54,557 nucleotides of DNA, taken from the sequence record PP180004; one strand, given 5' to 3'. A program made the position numbers and the translations under genes. Shown in pieces: positions 186 through 10,406 of this stretch. The stretch is from Escherichia phage mEp044. The notes below the pieces were generated by a model, which searched no databases, had not been told where the DNA came from, and worked only from the letters and a program-made list of their open reading frames with translations. How positions within the stretch are numbered: the stretch's first letter is position 1; each line of letters starts with the position of its first letter.

Positions 186-1385
186 ATGCTTACAGATACC
201 AAATTACGAAACATTCACGGCAAGCCATACGACGGCCCGAAAGAAGTACCGGACGCGGGCGGATTGTCTGTCAGGATAAGCCCGCGAGGAGTTATATCTT
301 TCCAGTATCGCTACCGATTCAACGGCAAGCCTAGACGGATGAAGATTGGCACATACGGAGAAATAACACTTAAAGAAGCGCGTGCGGCGGTGGCGGAGCA
401 TAAGGAAGTTCTAAACTCAGGTCGAGATCCATCGGTAGCAAAAAGAATGCACCTTTCCCGCATTACGACACGGGCAACGGTTGAGGATATTGTAAGGGAG
501 TACATGGAATCGCCGCAGGCAAGGAACATGGTCAATTATAAGCAGGTTGAGGCCATGCTAGATAAGCACGTCATAAAACCATACGGTAGCTATATCGTCG
601 ATGATATGGACGCTATGATGTGGGAGGGGGTTTTTAGAAAGGTAGCTAATGGTGGTGCACCAGTTCAGGCAGGTATAGTTCTCAACAGAATGAAGGCCGT
701 AATAAAATACGCCATTCGCCGCCGCCGCGTTGATCGTGACGACATATCATTACTGTGCGTTAAAGACGTTGGCAAAAAACCAGCGCAAGGCAAGCGCGTT
801 TTGTCAATACAGGAGATCCACCATCTAATTAGCCTTGTAGACAGTTCAAAAATGGCGAGGCTGAATCAGATATTGATGAAGCTGATTATATTTACCGGGT
901 GCAGGACAAGCGAACTGACAAACGCAAGGCGCGAGCATTTCGATCTTGATAGCTGTGTGTGGACGGTTCCGGGTGCATTAAGTAAGAACAGGAATGAGTT
1001 TAAACGCGGCTTATCCGACGTTAGCGTGGCTTTATTGCGTGAGGCTATGGATCTGCATAGCTTTGATTTTGTCTTCGTTCCTGTGCTTTCTGGAAGGGAT
1101 GTTGCGGTGGACAGAAGTGTGCCGAAAACAGCAGCGAGGGATTTAATGATGAGGATGGGCGGCGAGCCGTGGTCGTGTCACGATCTACGCCGCACCGTGA
1201 GGACAAACCTTTCAGCGCTTGGCGTTGCGCCTCACGTCGCAGAAAAGGTTTTGGGGCATAGGCTGGCGGGGATGTTGGCTATATACGATCAGTATGACTA
1301 TGTGAGGGAACAAATAGAGGCGATGAATAAGCTGGCTGATTATTACATGAAGCCCATTGATTTACAAAATGAAATAACATCCTGA
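186..1385 (+). CDS. int: tyrosine integrase (phage integrase family)
   Basis: ORF 117-1385 with likely start at ATG 186; C-terminal HDLRRT and LAIYDQY catalytic-region motifs typical of tyrosine recombinases. Confidence 0.9.
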   Translation: MLTDTKLRNIHGKPYDGPKEVPDAGGLSVRISPRGVISFQYRYRFNGKPRRMKIGTYGEITLKEARAAVAEHKEVLNSGRDPSVAKRMHLSRITTRATVEDIVREYMESPQARNMVNYKQVEAMLDKHVIKPYGSYIVDDMDAMMWEGVFRKVANGGAPVQAGIVLNRMKAVIKYAIRRRRVDRDDISLLCVKDVGKKPAQGKRVLSIQEIHHLISLVDSSKMARLNQILMKLIIFTGCRTSELTNARREHFDLDSCVWTVPGALSKNRNEFKRGLSDVSVALLREAMDLHSFDFVFVPVLSGRDVAVDRSVPKTAARDLMMRMGGEPWSCHDLRRTVRTNLSALGVAPHVAEKVLGHRLAGMLAIYDQYDYVREQIEAMNKLADYYMKPIDLQNEITS

Positions 1386-1561
1386 TAACGGTAAAGATAA
1401 CCGCCGCGCTTTAATGCTGGCATCCCCTTAACGGGTTCAGGGAATGGAGTACCTGAATCCTTCCACTTCTTAACCAGTTTAAAAAACGCCGACTTACTAA
1501 TCCCGCCCAACATTTTTTGCACTTGCTCGCGATTAATGAGTATTGTGCCGATCTTATCCAT
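1343..1561 (-). CDS. xis: AlpA/Xis-like helix-turn-helix excisionase or regulator
   Basis: 72 aa, convergent with int; AlpA-like motif FPEPVK...YLYRYQDV. Confidence 0.6.
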   Translation of the reverse strand: MDKIGTILINREQVQKMLGGISKSAFFKLVKKWKDSGTPFPEPVKGMPALKRGGYLYRYQDVISFCKSMGFM

Positions 1562-2223
1562 TATCTTTCCCCCGTGTATTCAACGTGTCCGATACATCCA
1601 TCAATAATAGCTTGCGCCATATTGCGATAATCACGCGTAAATTCACTGTCACGGCTAAAGTCGATCTCACTTGCCGCGTCATTACCCATAACCTTAGTGG
1701 CAAGTGCGAACGCTATTCCAGCGAGCGCCTTTTCTTTAGGATCTACATACAGCCTGAAAAAGTATGATGCAAATGATAATGGCTTCTCTTCGCAATCATC
1801 TTCCTTGCTTTCACATATACCCCATTTGTCACCAACATATTTAAATTTAACGACATCAAGAACCCTTCCGCTCGTAAGACCTACACAATCAAGCCACACA
1901 CCAACCGGAGGTTTTTCGCCTGCCAACCATTCAGTTTTTTCTTGTTGAGCATCACAATCATGTCGCTCATCTTCGATTAATTCATCAATGATTTCACTTT
2001 CTTTATTCATACCGTCATCATCCTTATTCGATAAATTAGCGTATTCATCAAATTTCCAGCTTGCAGCCATAACCGAATAAGTGCCGCCAGTGTCAGCGCG
2101 AACACCTAATAAATAGTATGATCCAAAATTATATTCTGTGCGGCATGTTGTTACCTCAAACGATGGGTAACACTCAGGGTTAGTTCGATGGCTAATCACG
2201 CCAATTGCTTTGAGTTTATTCAT
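1561..2223 (-). CDS. hypothetical protein, 220 aa, acidic central region
   Basis: long ORF, no recognisable family. Confidence 0.5.
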   Translation of the reverse strand: MNKLKAIGVISHRTNPECYPSFEVTTCRTEYNFGSYYLLGVRADTGGTYSVMAASWKFDEYANLSNKDDDGMNKESEIIDELIEDERHDCDAQQEKTEWLAGEKPPVGVWLDCVGLTSGRVLDVVKFKYVGDKWGICESKEDDCEEKPLSFASYFFRLYVDPKEKALAGIAFALATKVMGNDAASEIDFSRDSEFTRDYRNMAQAIIDGCIGHVEYTGER

Positions 2224-2237
2224 TTGCTTATCCTCAA

Positions 2238-2414
2238 TTACGCCACAGTTACATTGTCAACTTTGATAAAATATTCAGGGTGGTTTTCTATTTCGTGCTT
2301 AAAGTGCGCATGACACAATCGCCAATCACGCGCCTGATTGTGAAAATAGTAAACGTATTCGCCATCAATCTTGTATAAAATGCCCGTAGGTTTAGCCATG
2401 TAGTAACGAACCAT
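2238..2414 (-). CDS. hypothetical small protein, start coupled to ninB stop (TAATG)
   Basis: ORF 2238-2468 trimmed to the ATG overlapping the NinB stop. Confidence 0.4.
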   Translation of the reverse strand: MVRYYMAKPTGILYKIDGEYVYYFHNQARDWRLCHAHFKHEIENHPEYFIKVDNVTVA

Positions 2415-2845
2415 TATTGCCCCCAGCGTTTTATAAATTCCTCGTTTAACTTCGTATCGCCAGACCACTGAACACCGTGTTCAGCGCCGAACGAGTAGAT
2501 CAGTTCGATTAATTCGCTAAATTCTGCTTTACTCATCCGGCTGGTTGACGTACCAAGCACAACAAAACCTGATTTATCAAGGTTAGGGACAACGCCATAT
2601 TTCTTAAGCCCGGCAGTAAATACCGCTTTCCAGTCTTCAGGGGACAGCTTTTTGCCGTACCAATTAACCTGATCGCTAACGTCTGTCAGAAGCGCCCAAA
2701 GCAACGCGTTTTGACTCAGCGACCGGGTTTTCTCCTGGATGGTAATTACCAGCGGGCTTTTGCTATCTGGCTGGATCTCTCTTATCTGCCTGACAGCATT
2801 TTCTTTCACGGCGTCGTTTACTATCTCAAATCTAATTTGCCTCAT
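2414..2845 (-). CDS. ninB: NinB/Orf-family recombination mediator
   Basis: 143 aa; closely resembles lambda NinB (VITIQE..RSLSQN..LW..L.DVS.QV.W.G..L....WK.VFTA..K...VVPNL...GFVV.G.STSRM...EF.EL.ELI..FG.E.GV.WS). Confidence 0.85.
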   Translation of the reverse strand: MRQIRFEIVNDAVKENAVRQIREIQPDSKSPLVITIQEKTRSLSQNALLWALLTDVSDQVNWYGKKLSPEDWKAVFTAGLKKYGVVPNLDKSGFVVLGTSTSRMSKAEFSELIELIYSFGAEHGVQWSGDTKLNEEFIKRWGQ

Positions 2846-3039
2846 GATACACCGTTACTATTTTTCCACTGCGCCCGCGCATACATGATCGCCCGCAAAG
2901 AAATTAGGCGCGAGCTTGTCATAAAAGCGCTTTTTAAGTACCTCATATCAACAACAACAGGCTTATCAGGATCGTCGCTGCGCATGTATTCCGCAATCGT
3001 GCTCAAGTCTTCAACTGTCAATTCCAATTCCCTGTTCAT
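2842..3039 (-). CDS. hypothetical small protein
   Basis: ORF 2842-3117 trimmed to ATG 3039 preceded by AAGGTGG. Confidence 0.4.
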   Translation of the reverse strand: MNRELELTVEDLSTIAEYMRSDDPDKPVVVDMRYLKSAFMTSSRLISLRAIMYARAQWKNSNGVS

Positions 3040-3049
3040 GATCGCCACC

Positions 3050-3256
3050 TTACACAATCCGCATTGTGTTTCGTAATTCACCGCGCAACGCCTGTAAAGC
3101 GTAACGAATCGACACAAAAGCCCGGTTAAATTTTACGTGCCTGTATTTGCGCATTAGTGGCGGCGTATAAACCATCGCGCCGCAAGGATCGCATGGGAAT
3201 TTAAAGTGAGATTCGTCAATAAACGTTTCAACTGAATAAAAAATTACCCGTCTCAT
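3050..3256 (-). CDS. hypothetical Cys-containing small protein
   Basis: 68-aa ORF, start overlaps the stop of the upstream gene. Confidence 0.35.
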   Translation of the reverse strand: MRRVIFYSVETFIDESHFKFPCDPCGAMVYTPPLMRKYRHVKFNRAFVSIRYALQALRGELRNTMRIV

Positions 3257-3810
3257 AATTCCAACCCCGTTTCGCCGTTAAGTTTTTCGATCTCAAATAT
3301 TGGTTTATCCGGTAGCAGGCCGTTATTTTTCCGGTATTCGTTCAGGCGTCTGTCAAAGTCAAAAGCCAAATCATTAGCGTGACCGAAGCGCCCAGGTTTA
3401 AACAATGAGTAAAAATTTACCCCGTGTCGGTTAGGGTCAACGCAAAGCGTTTCATCAATAACCATTAAACGCAGAGTACGAGATAGATAATTCCACGGAA
3501 TACCCGTTTCCGCGCTAATGTCGCGCATACGCTTTTTAACGCTGTAGTCACCAAATAACGCAGCGACGCGCTCGCGACGTTCAGCATATAACTGTTTAAT
3601 ACGATAACCAAGCAGTCGGCGGCGGCGTCCAAAACATGTATACACGCGCTCGACGATGCCGTTTTTTATTAAGTGTTTAATTGTCTCAGGCATGATTCCA
3701 TCCTTATCATACCCGACCAATAATCCTGTTTTCTGGCGTAACTGGTGCATTGTTGCGATGCCATCAAGTTCAAGGATATTGATAATTTTTGTTTCAATTT
3801 CAGCGCTCAT
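3253..3810 (-). CDS. hypothetical protein, 185 aa
   Basis: ORF in the replication/nin operon; no family recognised. Confidence 0.5.
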   Translation of the reverse strand: MSAEIETKIINILELDGIATMHQLRQKTGLLVGYDKDGIMPETIKHLIKNGIVERVYTCFGRRRRLLGYRIKQLYAERRERVAALFGDYSVKKRMRDISAETGIPWNYLSRTLRLMVIDETLCVDPNRHGVNFYSLFKPGRFGHANDLAFDFDRRLNEYRKNNGLLPDKPIFEIEKLNGETGLEL

Positions 3811-3886
3811 TTTTCGCCTCGTTTAAAACGCGATAACAGCCACCAGAAAGCGGTAAACTTTCCGGCAAGCTGTTTGCTAATATTGA

Positions 3887-5302
3887 TTAAAAAGATGCGT
3901 TATTCTGATTGTTTCGTTGGTTAAAACGGCTTGTGCGATGATTCATTGACTGAATGCACGCTGCGGCTGCGCGCGCCTGGTCGCATGGCAAGATATTACC
4001 GTTGTCATCAAACCGCTGGTAAACAGTTCCAGACTTACCATGACGGTTTTTTGACACAATGATTTCCATGTATTCGCGGGCAACAGACTGCTCGTCGTAA
4101 TACCCATCGCGGTAAACCATGATTATTCTGTCGGCATCTTGCTCAAGGTTGCCGGAATCGCGCAGATCAGAATTATTCGGGCGCTTGTTCGGTCGTTCCT
4201 CAACGCGGCGGGACAACTGCGCCAGCGCTAACACTGGAACGCGCAATTCTTTTGCCATCATCTTCAACGACCATGACAATTGCCCTACAGCGAGATCATG
4301 ACGTTCGGCCTTAGCCAGCTTCATTAACCCGATATAGTCAATCATTACCATACCCAGGTTCGGGTGATCCTGCTTCATGCGTTCCGTTGTTGCGCGTATT
4401 TCCTCAACCGTTAACTGCGACGCGTCAACGATCCACACATCAAGGTTAGCAAGTGCGCTCATACCCTGGCCGACATGCGCCCACCCTTCATCATCAAGTT
4501 TTACCGGATTGCGCAGGCAGTCAGTTGATAAATTACCAGCGCCAGCGATAGCGCGCTCAGTCATCTGATCGAGTGACATTTCAAGCGTGAAGAACAAAAC
4601 GCCAACCCGCTGATCCTTGCTGCCAGGGTAAGGGCGTTCAGCAGCAGAGCGGGCAATTGCCAGCGCAAACGCAGATTTACCAGACCCAGGGCGTCCGGCG
4701 AGAAGCACCAGATCAGTAGCGTTAATGCCGCCTAACATTTCGTCGAGTGGTTCTATCCCTGTTTTAATGTTGTCAGAATTGACACCGCATTCCATGCGCT
4801 TACTTAAAACTTCTGTGTACTCCTGGACAGCATCGCGCAACAGAACAGGGATAATCTTGTCTTTCGTTACCTTTAATTTTGAATAACGGGAATCAAAATC
4901 TTTCATCGTCTCTTTGACGACCTCAAGCGTCCCCGTCTCCAGTTTGTAGCGCATATCGTCGATGAGTTCCAACATCTGCCGCCGCTGGTACTCTTCACGT
5001 AGTAGCTGTGCGTATCCCTTCAGGTTGGCAGCAGACGGGCACGATCTCGCCGTTTGCATTAGCGGTACGAAATTTTCATTACCAATCTCATCACCTACCA
5101 GCAATGCATCGATGAGATTCCTGTTTCTGGCTTGCGCCCGGATAATTTCAAAAGCCCTCTTATACAGCGGAATAGTGAACACTTCAGGATCAAGCGTGGC
5201 GAGAACATCTTGCGCGTTAGGAGTTAGGCCGCCCAACAGCAGCCCACCGATAACTGACGCCTCACGTTCCTGCCGTAGTGAGTTTATTTGCTCAGTTACC
5301 AT
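3887..5302 (-). CDS. replicative DNA helicase, DnaB family
   Basis: 471 aa; DnaB N-terminal EREASVIGGLLLGG; Walker A GRPGSGKSAFAL; RecA-like core. Confidence 0.9.
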   Translation of the reverse strand: MVTEQINSLRQEREASVIGGLLLGGLTPNAQDVLATLDPEVFTIPLYKRAFEIIRAQARNRNLIDALLVGDEIGNENFVPLMQTARSCPSAANLKGYAQLLREEYQRRQMLELIDDMRYKLETGTLEVVKETMKDFDSRYSKLKVTKDKIIPVLLRDAVQEYTEVLSKRMECGVNSDNIKTGIEPLDEMLGGINATDLVLLAGRPGSGKSAFALAIARSAAERPYPGSKDQRVGVLFFTLEMSLDQMTERAIAGAGNLSTDCLRNPVKLDDEGWAHVGQGMSALANLDVWIVDASQLTVEEIRATTERMKQDHPNLGMVMIDYIGLMKLAKAERHDLAVGQLSWSLKMMAKELRVPVLALAQLSRRVEERPNKRPNNSDLRDSGNLEQDADRIIMVYRDGYYDEQSVAREYMEIIVSKNRHGKSGTVYQRFDDNGNILPCDQARAAAACIQSMNHRTSRFNQRNNQNNASF

Positions 5303-5320: not shown

Positions 5321-6463
5321 TTACAAAATGGAAAATTCAGGGTAATAAACAAAGCGCCCGATCTCCCCATGATCCGGGCTGTAAATAATCACCGCTGCCA
5401 GACGCCGCGACCTCCAACCTCCATTAGTCGAATATGCATCTTTGCCCGCTAACGTGCCGTGATACTCAACAACGCCTAACGATGATTCAATCAGCCTTTG
5501 ATGATGCCAGTGCCCGCAATGAGCGTAAACCGCAGACGACTTGCCAAAGTCTTCCCGCCAGTCAGCTACGCAAGCAGACAATAAATTTTCCGGCTTTTTG
5601 ATAGTGTGCCCGTGGTGGTAAGCAAGGAATGTTTTCCCGTACTGCGTGTGGTGGACGATAGTAGGTGACACATCAACCGTCACGCGCGGTTCATCTTCGT
5701 AAAAAGCCGCCAGCGCCGCACGTAGCCAAATCATACCAGACTGGTCATGATTCCCTGATAACACCTGGATTTCCACATCCTTATGATTTAGCAACATCTT
5801 TCCTACCGCACGCCGGACAGACCGGATCGCCACATAAACAAGTTTTGCGTAGCGCGAATCGCAATCAAGAACGTGATTACTTGATGGCGTCACTGGTAAC
5901 AATCCGTCAGTGTGAAGCAGGTCGCCACCGAGAAGCAAGACCGCTTTTTCACTCATAGGAGCAGCGCCAACAGCATAATCAAAGAAGTTATTTAGCACGC
6001 GTTCAGCGATCCCAGTGTCGTAGCTCTCGCCGCATTCAGCTTTATGAGCAAGCGCGCCGATATGCAGATCAAATACCGGATAAAGGGCAAGGCTTTTTTG
6101 AAAATCAATTTCAGGCACTGGCACGGCATCCGCGCGTGGTATTTCCTCCGTGAATGCGTCGCGGGCAGCTTCCATTAGCCTTTCCATTTCATCGCGGTCA
6201 CGGGCTGTTTTAATCCAGCGCATGACCGTATTCCCAGCCTTATCGACAAGAACAGATTCACCAGTAACGCCAAAACCCGGCGCGCGGCGCGTTGATAATA
6301 AACCGCGTTTCGCCAGCTTTGCGCCCAGGCGCTCGACGTTGCGTTTTGACATGCCAAATTTTTCGGCGATCTGTTTATACGTTAAACCGTTGTTATATTC
6401 AGCGATCAATTGCTCATCGCTGATTTTTCTTTGCGACATAATGTTAATTCCTCCAGTTAACAA
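5321..6463 (-). CDS. N-terminal HTH fused to calcineurin-like metallophosphoesterase
   Basis: 380 aa; HTH LTYKQIAEKFGMSKRNVERL; phosphoesterase motifs DLHIG, GGDLLH, GNHDQ, HHGH, GHWHH. Confidence 0.7.
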   Translation of the reverse strand: MLTGGINIMSQRKISDEQLIAEYNNGLTYKQIAEKFGMSKRNVERLGAKLAKRGLLSTRRAPGFGVTGESVLVDKAGNTVMRWIKTARDRDEMERLMEAARDAFTEEIPRADAVPVPEIDFQKSLALYPVFDLHIGALAHKAECGESYDTGIAERVLNNFFDYAVGAAPMSEKAVLLLGGDLLHTDGLLPVTPSSNHVLDCDSRYAKLVYVAIRSVRRAVGKMLLNHKDVEIQVLSGNHDQSGMIWLRAALAAFYEDEPRVTVDVSPTIVHHTQYGKTFLAYHHGHTIKKPENLLSACVADWREDFGKSSAVYAHCGHWHHQRLIESSLGVVEYHGTLAGKDAYSTNGGWRSRRLAAVIIYSPDHGEIGRFVYYPEFSIL

Positions 6464-7215: not shown

Positions 7216-7827
7216 TTAAACGATAATGCGCACAAACTTACAGCCCAACACTGCGCTTATTTCTTTTTCACGAATACGATCTGCTTCCGTATGCTGCGGT
7301 GTGAAATGTTGCTCCTCATCTATTTCATAGGCGATATTGTTTACAGGATCGTAGCCATCTATTCTGTATTTTCCTAGCACTGGATACTGCCTTATTAATT
7401 TAACTCCCTGTAATTGTTCTATGGTGGTTAATGCTGTTTTCTCTCTGATTCCGTTATTTCTGATTTTTTCACTTACGACGGATAAAGATGATATTGTTTC
7501 GCATAAATCATTGTATTCACTGAATTTATTACAAACTTCTTCTTTGAACCAATGTAAAAAGCGATAGTTTTTAGATTTCAATACAATATTGCATAAGTCA
7601 CATAACAACATAAGCGTTACGCCTTGTGGCTTGGGCTTAAAACCAATATTAAGCATTTCACCGTATTTGATTTTAATCAATGACTTACAGTGTCTTTTGA
7701 TTGCGCTTTGTGGTTTTATGTATCCAAGCGCCCGCGCCACATCCATTGCAACAAAAGCAGGTTTACCATCATAAATTACAGCAGTGATTTGGTTGTTATC
7801 GAAATTAAAACTCATCAACTCAGACAT
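7216..7827 (-). CDS. Bro-N domain protein fused to a Vsr/DUF559-like PD-(D/E)xK nuclease-like domain
   Basis: ORF 7216-7887 with likely start MSELMSFNF at 7827; C-terminal YRIDGYDP..IAYEIDEEQH..D.IRE...LGCKFVRI. Confidence 0.55.
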   Translation of the reverse strand: MSELMSFNFDNNQITAVIYDGKPAFVAMDVARALGYIKPQSAIKRHCKSLIKIKYGEMLNIGFKPKPQGVTLMLLCDLCNIVLKSKNYRFLHWFKEEVCNKFSEYNDLCETISSLSVVSEKIRNNGIREKTALTTIEQLQGVKLIRQYPVLGKYRIDGYDPVNNIAYEIDEEQHFTPQHTEADRIREKEISAVLGCKFVRIIV

Positions 7828-8194
7828 TGTAATTTCTCCGTAAAACGCTCTACAACGCAAAAATCCCACCGCGTAACACGTTTGCACATGTTGCAGTGTC
7901 TTATTGCGTCATAGGAGCAATCAGGTGGCTAATTTTTGATTTACAGACTGGTAGGTATGTTATGGATTGACTAGAAGGAATAAACCGCCGAACAAGGCGA
8001 CGTTAACAGCGATTGCCGCAGAGATGGCAAAAGCTAGGGCGAAAACGTGTTTACCGTCCATTTAAAAATCCCCTCTAAAACGCTATCTAACGAGCTAATA
8101 GCAAAAAGGTATGCAAGTGTAGCACCCAATGCAATTTAGCTCGCTGGTGAGCTTGCTGGGTTGGTTATTTTTGGTTTTTGTGTATCGTGGTTGG

Positions 8195-9187
8195 TCAAAG
8201 AGCGCCAGCGCGTGTATCACGTAGCGTTTTTGGTTTAAGCAGGAAATCAAGTGTCGCAGTGAAGCCATCGCCGAAGTAAAAATCTGAAGCCTTGTTTTTG
8301 AATGCTTCGAAGTAGGCGATAAATCCGTTAATGCTTTTGTCTTTCAGGTAGTCAGTGAACGCATAGATCTTGCGTTCAAGATCCCGATCAAGTTCGGCAG
8401 GTGGCAACAGGCCATCAAACGTGATGTTAAATTCTTCCACCACGTCGGCAGCGTTTGCAGTAGCTGATAGCTTTCGCCATTGTTCAGCATCAGCCAGATA
8501 CCCATCAAACTTAGTTGCCCGGCAAATGTTAACAGGCTTAGGTGTTCCACCACGGCTACGCCATTGCGTTAAAGCCCACTCAATCACTAATGTGATCTCA
8601 TCCTCAGTATACGCTTTACGTGTTTTTGTTTCTGTCAGTAGTTCGATGAACGGTTTTGCATCACGACATTTGCATCCTGCCTTGTCGTTGTAAAAGGCCA
8701 GGCAACGCAATGCAGCCAGATTAACCTCCCGATCTTCTTCGCTGATAGACTCGTCTTTTTCCAATACACGAAGTGTATTGTTTTTAATGTTCTCTTTACT
8801 GGTTATATATGACTGGTTAGGGTGACTCTGTGTCACTACCCCCGGTGACTCTGTGTCACTACCCTGGTGACTCTGTGTCACTACCCCCGGTGTCACAGTG
8901 ACACTACCATGTAATGACGGGAGGACTATTACATAGAAATTACTAGTTTGCTCTTTTCCTCCGATTAAGTATCTTGGTTGTTTAATCAACAACCCTTTTT
9001 CACAAAGTGAGTCTACAGCCCTCATAGCTGTTCTTTTACTGATCTCACACTCCTTTGCTATGTGATGGTAAGAAGGGTAACACTCGCCGTTATCATTAGC
9101 GTTGTCAGCTAACTTTAACAGCACAAGTTTGTGCATTGGGTCGCCGACCTCAGTATGGAAGACCTCTACCATTAGCCGCATACTCAT
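8195..9187 (-). CDS. replication initiator with N-terminal HTH domain (lambda O-like role); contains the ori iterons
   Basis: 330 aa; N-terminal HTH; internal iteron array as in lambda O. Confidence 0.7.
   Translation of the reverse strand: MSMRLMVEVFHTEVGDPMHKLVLLKLADNANDNGECYPSYHHIAKECEISKRTAMRAVDSLCEKGLLIKQPRYLIGGKEQTSNFYVIVLPSLHGSVTVTPGVVTQSHQGSDTESPGVVTQSHPNQSYITSKENIKNNTLRVLEKDESISEEDREVNLAALRCLAFYNDKAGCKCRDAKPFIELLTETKTRKAYTEDEITLVIEWALTQWRSRGGTPKPVNICRATKFDGYLADAEQWRKLSATANAADVVEEFNITFDGLLPPAELDRDLERKIYAFTDYLKDKSINGFIAYFEAFKNKASDFYFGDGFTATLDFLLKPKTLRDTRAGAL
8821..8908. repeat. origin iterons: three direct copies of about 20 bp (ggtgactctgtgtcactacc) followed by an inverted variant, then an AT-rich stretch (8909-8950)
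   Basis: read directly; lies inside the initiator gene (encodes the VTQSH peptide repeats). Confidence 0.7.
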
Positions 9188-9758: not shown

Positions 9759-10406
9759 ATGAAAACAAAATGGTATGACTTAGCAAAACAACTCATGCGG
9801 GCGCAGGGCATGAGCCAGGATTCATTGGCTGATCTTATGGGGATAACCAAAGGCGGCCTTTCTCACTGGTTGAACGGTCGCCGTGAGCCGAATCTTGAAG
9901 ATATTGCGCGGATCATGCGGGCGCTTGGGCGTCGGCAGTTCACTGTCACACATGATGGAATGGTCATTGATGATTCTGTTTCTAACACGTTGCCGGGAGC
10001 GCCACCGCGTGATTTAGGCAGTTACCCGGTTGTTGACTGGAAGGATGTAGTAAACAATATGGAAGATGCAAGGCGATCAACATTACCACACGTTACGACT
10101 AGCGTTATTTGTTCAGATGATAGTTATTGGCTGGTAGCTAAAGGCGAATCAATGAACGCGCCGCAAGGGTTAAGCATCCCGGCGGGTACTATGATACTTG
10201 TTGACCCGCACGCGCCAGCTATTGACGGCAAGCTCGTTATAGCCCAACTGGAGGAAGGGCAGACGCCTACGTTTAAACAGTTGATTATTGATGGAGGCCG
10301 AAAACTTTTGCGTTCACTTAATCCGTTGTATCCGCCGATCCCTATGAATCCAGAATCAAAAATCATTGGCGTGGTTGTTGATGCGAAGATCGTAAACCTG
10401 CCATAA
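9759..10406 (+). CDS. cI: CI-type repressor (HTH plus LexA-like S24 peptidase domain)
   Basis: 215 aa; N-terminal HTH; C-terminal AKGESM ... K motifs of S24 autopeptidases. Confidence 0.9.
   Translation: MKTKWYDLAKQLMRAQGMSQDSLADLMGITKGGLSHWLNGRREPNLEDIARIMRALGRRQFTVTHDGMVIDDSVSNTLPGAPPRDLGSYPVVDWKDVVNNMEDARRSTLPHVTTSVICSDDSYWLVAKGESMNAPQGLSIPAGTMILVDPHAPAIDGKLVIAQLEEGQTPTFKQLIIDGGRKLLRSLNPLYPPIPMNPESKIIGVVVDAKIVNLP

Follow-up and report, generated by a model that had tools for sequence, protein, structure and literature searches.

Five conserved genes around ninB in the early region of Escherichia phage mEp044, among them a modular acidic protein and a predicted tandem winged-helix protein

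In the genome of Escherichia phage mEp044 (sequence record PP180004; the window analysed here is the whole stretch of 54,557 nucleotides), the minus strand between the integrase gene and the gene for a DnaB-like helicase is occupied by a tight series of small genes. Five of these encode proteins to which the homology searches assign no function, and which are here called p220, p185, p58, p65 and p68. Read along that strand, the order is DnaB, p185, p68, p65, NinB, p58, p220 and a Xis-like gene (Table 1). A preliminary description, drawn from the sequence alone, had listed a 220-amino-acid (aa) protein, a 185-aa protein and three small proteins around NinB as unknown proteins at the integrase-proximal end of the early operon, and had considered them possible cargo with defence or host-interaction functions. 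The coordinates given there for the two larger genes, both on the minus strand, proved exact, p58, p65 and p68 indeed flank NinB, and the position within the operon was confirmed. The statement that no family could be recognised holds for p220, p58 and p68, which gave no significant match in Pfam, PHROG, NCBIfam, PADLOC or PDB sequences, but holds only in part for p185 and p65, which match phrog_1687 and phrog_21123, respectively. Apart from NinB, none of the proteins proved clearly homologous to proteins that serve routine replication or recombination, and PDB sequence and profile searches returned nothing useful for the proteins. All five genes are already deposited as hypothetical proteins.

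Two of the open reading frames (ORFs) allow more than one start. For p58, the ATG that overlaps the NinB stop was preferred over the longest ORF of 76 aa, and for p65 a start preceded by the ribosome-binding site AAGGTGG was preferred over an ORF of 91 aa; both choices fit the annotation of phage mEp554.

Table 1 Coordinates of the features discussed in this study (positions in the window; residue numbers in the last column refer to the protein models).
Feature	Position	Strand	Basis or remark
Tyrosine integrase	~186-1385	plus	converges on xis
Xis/AlpA-like small DNA-binding protein, 72 aa	1343-1561	minus	phrog_4745 'DNA binding protein'
p220, acidic modular ORFan; equivalent of mEp021_03 and mEp554_04	1561-2223	minus	ORF, 220 aa
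p220 C-terminal helical domain (predicted), codons 161-220	1564-1743	minus	AlphaFold2 helices 162-179, 181-184, 197-207
p220 central SH3/Tudor-like five-stranded barrel (predicted), codons 93-160	1744-1947	minus	AlphaFold2 strands within 110-158, block-mean pLDDT 81-88
p220 acidic linker KDDDGMNKESEIIDELIEDERHDC, codons 67-92	1948-2025	minus	AlphaFold2 low confidence, helix 77-88
p220 N-terminal five-stranded beta domain (predicted), codons 1-66	2026-2223	minus	AlphaFold2 strands within residues 8-60, block-mean pLDDT 72-84
p58, small protein, no known function	2238-2414	minus	ORF, no family match
NinB/Orf recombination mediator	2414-2845	minus	PF05772, 159.4 bits against a cut-off of 23.8; phrog_72, E=1e-44
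p65, phrog_21123 member (function unknown)	2842-3039	minus	ORF and PHROG match
p68, small basic protein, isoelectric point 10.1	3050-3256	minus	ORF; no known function
p185, predicted tandem winged-helix protein; equivalent of mEp021_08	3253-3810	minus	ORF, 185 aa
p185 C-terminal tail, 30 residues, LNEYRKNNGLLPDKP(I/V)FEIEKLNGETGLEL	3256-3345	minus	both alleles, nearly unchanged
RNA hairpin, 17 base pairs, then U-rich stretch, in DnaB-p185 spacer	3835-3875	minus	minimum free energy -30.1 kcal/mol, z=-2.9
DnaB-like helicase	3887-5302	minus	ORF
p380, 380 aa, N-terminal helix-turn-helix fused to phrog_704 'DNA repair exonuclease' body	5321-6463	minus	profile match
BRO-N gene, low GC content (0.36-0.37)	7216-7887	minus	weak DUF559/Vsr-like C-terminal match, E=0.009
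O-like initiator	8195-9187	minus	contains iterons 8798-8910

By sequence comparison the window belongs to a temperate coliphage of the mEp021 group (mEpimmI), a phage group that was described in 2025. Within 1300-4000, DNA identity to mEp554 is 99.5% beginning at position 1530, and mEp010 is 91% identical throughout; weaker matches were obtained with mEp013, mEp515, mEp021 and MagusPhagus and with prophages of 35 of 5,426 complete E. coli genomes. The mEpimmI phages are Nus-dependent and non-lambdoid, reportedly match lambdoid phages in their frequency in human gut samples, carry nutL upstream of the repressor gene, and use Gp17/Nus antitermination acting on the leftward operon; the region treated here was assigned to a 'replication/recombination' cluster (PMC11893012). 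Common as these phages are, their early accessory genes have had no earlier study.

The five ORFs are real genes that form part of the conserved core of the mEp021 group. Each was found in all 47 related loci, p220 being cut by a contig end in one of them; counted separately, p220 and p185 were present in 47/47 and 42/42 loci, and p58 in 47/47 at 52-100% identity. The ratio of non-synonymous to synonymous codon differences was 0.25 for p58, 0.66 for p65, 0.61 for p68 and 0.58 for p185, compared with 0.12 for DnaB and 0.15 for NinB. Synonymous changes outnumber non-synonymous ones in all genes but p220, and in p220 the ratio of the corresponding substitution rates (dN/dS) is below 1 in every segment. 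The comparison across related prophages that the preliminary description had proposed showed that gene order is unchanged at abgT and at ydaM/dgcM, and that the genes are constant at both sites whatever the type of integrase.

The integrase and Xis, on the other hand, vary together: Xis identity is 90-97% where Int identity is 91-97%, and falls to 43-50% where Int is about 50% identical. Neither p220 nor p185 follows the Int or Xis type. The case of mEp554 is instructive in that its Int is only 51% and its Xis only 46% identical to those of mEp044, despite the 99.5% DNA identity that sets in at position 1530. Judging from these alignments, the int/xis module is exchanged among the phages, with a junction close to the p220 stop and the xis start. 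No PADLOC-DB defence model matched any of the five proteins at E<=1, a sigma-70-like promoter site was sought on the minus strand of 1561-3810 and not found, and neither the variable presence nor the own promoter and terminator by which morons and cargo are recognised was seen in these genes. The suggestion of integrase-proximal cargo with a defence function is therefore not supported, because the genes are constantly present, are independent of int/xis, are joined by coupled junctions, have no promoter-like site of their own and lack any PADLOC match; they are core genes embedded in an operon. This core, int-independent status also removes the tempting label of a 'defence island'.

The junctions that flank NinB are insertion hot spots in the relatives. 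In mEp021 an N4/N6 DNA methyltransferase gene is inserted beside NinB (locus L002, 2836-3573), in E. coli MS 21-1 a gene for a BRO-N protein occupies a comparable place (locus L005, 3840-4400), and in locus L091 a BRO/Rha-like protein of 246 aa replaces p58 (4517-5257). The block has thus received genuine insertions in relatives, yet the five genes are constant.

Tight packing extends through the whole block. Between p185 and xis, neighbouring genes either overlap at ATGA or TAATG or are set apart by short gaps, of 10 nucleotides (nt) between p68 and p65 and of 14 nt between p58 and p220, and the Xis-like gene, whose ATG overlaps the p220 stop (TAATG), is the last of the leftward early operon. 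Upstream, a spacer of 76 nt separates DnaB from p185. A CI-like repressor gene lies on the plus strand (9759-10406), divergent from the leftward operon. On this arrangement, the stretch 1561-3810 forms the far end, by its place a delayed-early one, of the antiterminated leftward early operon, which starts from a promoter near the repressor gene and from nutL. In position it answers to the ren-nin block that follows O and P in lambda. The hairpin in the DnaB-p185 spacer is kept in nearly all related loci, with energies of -18 to -29 kcal/mol and changes compatible with G-U pairing. Placed before the accessory genes, it may serve as a terminator or attenuator and, by analogy, could act like lambda tR2. 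A simple terminator scan did not flag it, and neither Rfam nor tRNA searches across the window gave a hit.

The most unusual member of the block is p220. Its AlphaFold2 model has an overall confidence (predicted local distance difference test, pLDDT) of 74.7, with block means mostly between 72 and 88 in the domains and a low-confidence acidic segment at residues 65-93. The acidic, Cys-containing centre mentioned in the preliminary description is indeed there: the net charge of the stretch 67-100 is -10, in a protein that has seven cysteines, an isoelectric point (pI) of 4.6 and a net charge of -16. Because p220 is so strongly acidic, protein binding is favoured over DNA binding, which argues for a protein binder and makes a DNA binder unlikely.

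Searches by fold gave p220 generic matches, and searches by profile its own family. Foldseek on the PDB returned tandem Tudor, KOW and WYL-containing proteins with E-values of at least 1e-3 (PafBC 1.4e-3, KOW6-7 2e-3), and a Foldseek search of BFVD returned uncharacterised phage proteins. When 40 members of the p220 family were scanned singly against Pfam and PHROGs, noise alone was obtained, and no Tudor, KOW, WYL or DUF551 Pfam domain appeared in any of them at E<=10. No sequence or fold match to the anti-restriction DNA mimics Ocr and ArdA stood among the top hits of p220. Homology to lambda Ea22 or Ea8.5 was rejected, with hhalign probabilities of 0.4% and 0.07%, respectively, and no match to Pfam Ead_Ea22. 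Searched with the p220 profile, 1.84 billion cluster representatives yielded nine proteins, each a member or a fragment of the p220 family; none of 185,579 GTDB species genomes contained p220, and a tblastn search of phage genomes with the central cassette found mEp-group phages only. As far as these searches reach, p220 is an ORFan restricted to the mEp021 phage group.

Within that group, no gene of the region is less conserved than p220: its identity spans 48-100%, compared with 91-99% for DnaB and, one locus excepted, 94-99% for NinB. Among 155 distinct full-length p220 proteins, clustering distinguished five types of N-terminal module, nine of the central module (at 70% identity) and five of the C-terminal module, which occur in 29 combinations. 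Central barrel types are as little as 21% identical, and the C module has a mean identity of 82%. The linker KDDDGMNKESEIIDELIEDERHDC shows an amino-acid diversity of 0.04-0.06 compared with a synonymous diversity of 0.17-0.21, and its dN/dS is 0.05-0.07; the central module has a dN/dS of 0.33 at a dS of about 1.4, which is saturated, and the C module a dN/dS of 0.09-0.13. Blanket positive selection on p220 is ruled out by values below 1 in all segments. Likewise, the linker is neither the product of recent recombination nor a DNA element, both being ruled out by the synonymous variation that persists in it, and the constraint must therefore act on the protein. Judged by these alignments, the N and central modules are old allelic cassettes that reassort freely by recombination. 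Natural variants show the modules to be separable: one p220 of 127 aa (P0151, locus L091, 5254-5637) consists of the beta and helical domains only, without linker and central barrel, and in the fragment P0154 an unrelated N-terminus is joined at the linker.

For the second larger protein, p185, the model gives good confidence in a tandem winged-helix fold; the protein probably binds nucleic acid and carries a presumably partner-binding tail. The AlphaFold2 prediction (pLDDT 78.9) has winged-helix units at approximately residues 3-71 and 85-136, followed by further helices at 147-162 and 172-181. Foldseek matches include winged-helix parts of RPC34, RPC62, TFIIIC, ZitR/MarR, ScpB, ESCRT-II and SelB, the best at E=3e-5, with TM-scores to whole structures of 0.43 or lower. 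The body of the protein is basic (pI 9.4-9.8) with an arginine-rich FGRRRR wing, and the C-terminal tail is acidic.

Several identities suggested by name or position were tried for p185. It does belong to the phage proteins of phrog_1687, labelled 'MarR family transcription regulator', by a significant full-length match (E=2.2e-10, residues 6-164 on profile positions 4-153 of 162), and the other identities were rejected. The MarR architecture, however, consists of one winged helix with N- and C-terminal dimerisation helices, which does not agree with two units and two short helices in the model; ZitR and the other MarR matches in Foldseek span only part of p185, Pfam gave neither MarR nor MarR_2, its sole match being HTH_24 at 13.4 bits, below the cut-off of 21.9, and no NCBIfam model scored above threshold. 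The name Lrp/AsnC, which PGAP gives to some p185 homologues, finds no AsnC_trans_reg match in Pfam or NCBIfam, and Lrp/AsnC-type chains in the PDB align at E-values of about 0.2-1 over the helix-turn-helix (HTH) region only. Like Ren, p185 stands directly after the replication genes, 76 nt past DnaB, and it reaches E=3.6e-4 against the Ren-like phrog_142 with no single stretch passing alone. Identity with lambda Ren was nevertheless rejected, as BLASTP gave no alignment and hhalign a probability of 0.9%. To known loaders or initiators p185 showed no sequence or profile similarity.

Two alleles of p185 exist, one of 185 aa (40 of 48 sequences) and one of 175 aa (8 of 48), and a renewed profile search found no relatives besides these two; the family is restricted to the mEp021 phage group. 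The bodies of the alleles are only about 36% identical, whereas the tail LNEYRKNNGLLPDKPVFEIEKLNGETGLEL is nearly invariant in both, in a part of the model where confidence is low. Over 26 codons of the tail in the 48 sequences, synonymous differences averaged 3.6-4.8 and non-synonymous differences about 1.5. As in the p220 linker, this persisting synonymous variation rules out recent recombination or a DNA element and thus points to constraint on the protein.

Co-variation was tested for the p220 modules and the p185 alleles against Int, Xis, p58, p65, p68, DnaB, p380, the N-terminal type of the O-like initiator and the DnaB-p185 spacer, and nothing beyond local linkage was detected. In particular, the p185 allele showed no co-variation with DnaB, with the O N-terminal type or with the DnaB-p185 spacer.

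These observations are best accommodated by an explanation in three parts, namely that the five genes form a block of the leftward operon, that p185 is a regulator or adaptor and that p220 is a protein-binding adaptor of host takeover or counter-defence; jointly, these are given a probability of roughly 0.45. In this explanation p185 would bind nucleic acid via its winged helices and a conserved phage or host partner via its tail, and would act as a regulator or adaptor in early development. The constant acidic helix and the C-domain of p220 would engage a conserved partner, and the exchangeable barrels would recognise or evade polymorphic E. coli proteins, making p220 a host-takeover or counter-defence factor of lytic growth or of the phase after induction. 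The cassette-like polymorphism makes a host-interaction or counter-defence role of p220 in lytic growth plausible, and the preliminary interpretation is supported in part. A more specific and rather unlikely version would make p220 a new modular adaptor whose acidic helix and C-domain dock on a conserved cellular machine, and whose cassettes, at least nine central and five N-terminal, would each have their own strain-specific E. coli protein to recognise, such as a variable immunity sensor, with recombination between co-circulating mEpimmI phages re-targeting the protein.

A number of observations weigh against this explanation. Homology searches assign no function to p220, p185, p58, p65 or p68, and the fold matches of p220 are generic and weak (E-values of at least 1e-3, TM-scores of about 0.2). 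With dN/dS below 1 everywhere in p220, its diversity stems from old cassettes, and an arms race is not demonstrated; nor does the central type of p220 co-vary with p58, p65, p68, p185, Int/Xis or the O N-terminal type. For p185 no cognate site was found, both alleles have the same upstream spacer, and its DNA binding is deduced from modelled fold and charge. The delayed-early timing, in turn, is deduced from the arrangement of the genes.

Three other explanations compete with this one. That p220 and/or p185 could be morons expressed from the prophage, serving the defence of the lysogen or altering host physiology, is suggested by their place beside int/xis, by the GC content of p220 (0.40-0.43, compared with 0.45-0.50 in its neighbours), by its high polymorphism and by the true morons inserted into the block in relatives, that is, the mEp021 methyltransferase, the MS 21-1 BRO-N and the L091 BRO/Rha-like genes. 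Genes that occur in every relative are not variable content, however, and those considered here are independent of the int/xis module, are tied by translational coupling into an early operon that is repressed, lack any promoter-like site on the minus strand, and have no match in PADLOC. Such cargo is therefore very unlikely, and prophage-expressed defence is the least likely of the rivals. Alternatively, the proteins could be accessories of replication or recombination, with p185 as an adaptor associated with the helicase or with the origin, its tail binding the phage DnaB or the conserved C-domain of the O-like initiator, and with p220 handling recombination intermediates together with NinB, SSB or RecA, where its acidic segment would mimic DNA or an SSB tail. 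The positions of p185 directly downstream of DnaB and of p220 downstream of NinB would suit such roles, as would the published cluster label 'replication/recombination' (PMC11893012). Tandem winged helices are known in proteins of replication and chromosome organisation such as ScpB, and the invariant tail and variable body of p185 mirror the conserved C-terminal and variable N-terminal parts of the O-like initiator. However, neither DnaB nor the O N-terminal type varies in step with the p185 allele, no similarity to known loaders or initiators was seen, an acidic p220 is unlikely to bind DNA, and cassette polymorphism is ill-suited to partners as highly conserved as NinB and DnaB. This alternative is consequently held to be improbable.

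A similarly low probability is given to the view that the genes modulate lysis-lysogeny decisions or excision in the manner of the lambda exo-xis proteins, biasing lysogenisation and induction via host factors. Both sets of genes directly precede xis within an early operon under antitermination, p220 and xis are translationally coupled, and Ea22 is likewise a multi-domain, sequence-diverse protein, for which some host protein was proposed as the binding partner (PMC7093339, PMC10834534). Against this, alignment of the p220 profile with Ea22 and Ea8.5 by hhalign gave probabilities below 1%, p220 varies independently of the Xis and Int types, and the operon of mEp044 contains replication genes and not recombination genes. 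Two proteins are candidates for experiment: p185, with its two alleles, predicted tandem winged helices and invariant tail, encoded beside the phage helicase, and p220, which exceeds the other conserved genes of the region in polymorphism and has cassettes shuffled around an invariant acidic motif. If the p220 cassettes set host specificity, p220 would offer a compact model of how temperate phages use recombination to re-target host-interaction proteins; if they do not, the region would be an ordinary nin-like accessory block.

Further upstream in the leftward operon, the minus strand also encodes a small HTH protein, the O-like initiator, a BRO-N gene, a Rha/KilAC antirepressor-like gene and p380, in addition to DnaB. 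At least three copies of a 22-23-nt iteron, GGTGACTCTGTGTCACTACCCC, lie at 8798-8910. As they are situated inside the gene of the O-like initiator, this cluster is probably the origin. Across the relatives the N-terminal domain of the initiator is allelic (29-40% or 81-99% identity), and the C-terminal part is 73-96% identical. Every relative has p380, for which a replication role is undescribed, at 89-97% identity and in the same place, after the initiator region and before DnaB. The BRO-N gene at 7216-7887 is missing from related loci or partly matched in them, and looks like a true moron within the early operon.

At the other end, the integrase of mEp044 is of the type-II (abgT) kind, as reported for this phage, and the 3' ends of int and the Xis-like gene converge with an overlap of 43 nt (1343-1385). 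Because of this overlap, read-through of the early operon past xis would run antisense to int, an arrangement that could resemble retroregulation. In lambda xis and int are co-oriented, whereas here int and the Xis-like gene are convergent.

Among known proteins, the O-type initiators combine a variable, iteron-binding N-terminal part with a conserved, partner-binding C-terminal part, and p185 and p220 also mix exchangeable with constant modules; the difference is that the iterons of the initiators are known and co-vary, whereas for p185 and p220 the search revealed no partner that co-varies. Consecutive winged-helix units and a basic surface link p185 to winged-helix proteins such as those of the MarR type, ScpB, RPC34/RPC62 and the SelB C-terminus. 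It differs from MarR, a single unit with dimerisation helices, and from Lrp/AsnC, an HTH followed by a RAM domain, in its predicted tandem units and acidic tail. For the N-terminal and central domains of p220 the best structural matches are small-barrel proteins (tandem Tudor domains of 53BP1 and SAWADEE, KOW6-KOW7 of Spt5, the WYL proteins PafBC and DriD), at about 10% identity and E-values of at least 1e-3, and those families have neither the acidic linker nor the helical C-domain.

At the level of the locus, the exo-xis genes of lambda and Stx phages (Ea22, Ea8.5, Orf60a, Orf61, Orf63) are also poorly understood early genes just upstream of xis. The proteins themselves differ, in that Ea22 consists of a coiled coil and an alpha/beta C-terminal domain and p220 of two small predicted beta barrels, an acidic linker and a helical domain. 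The ren-nin region of lambda (ren, ninA-ninI) differs from the present block in that NinB is the sole homologue, p185 being unlike Ren, in that it lies in the PR operon and ends at a Q-type late regulator, whereas the block of mEp044 lies in the operon that carries nutL and ends at xis. Both regions nevertheless consist of small, packed and dispensable-looking accessory genes that follow the replication genes and include a NinB homologue, both are insertion hot spots in relatives, and the place taken by tR2 ahead of the lambda block is taken here by a terminator-like hairpin.

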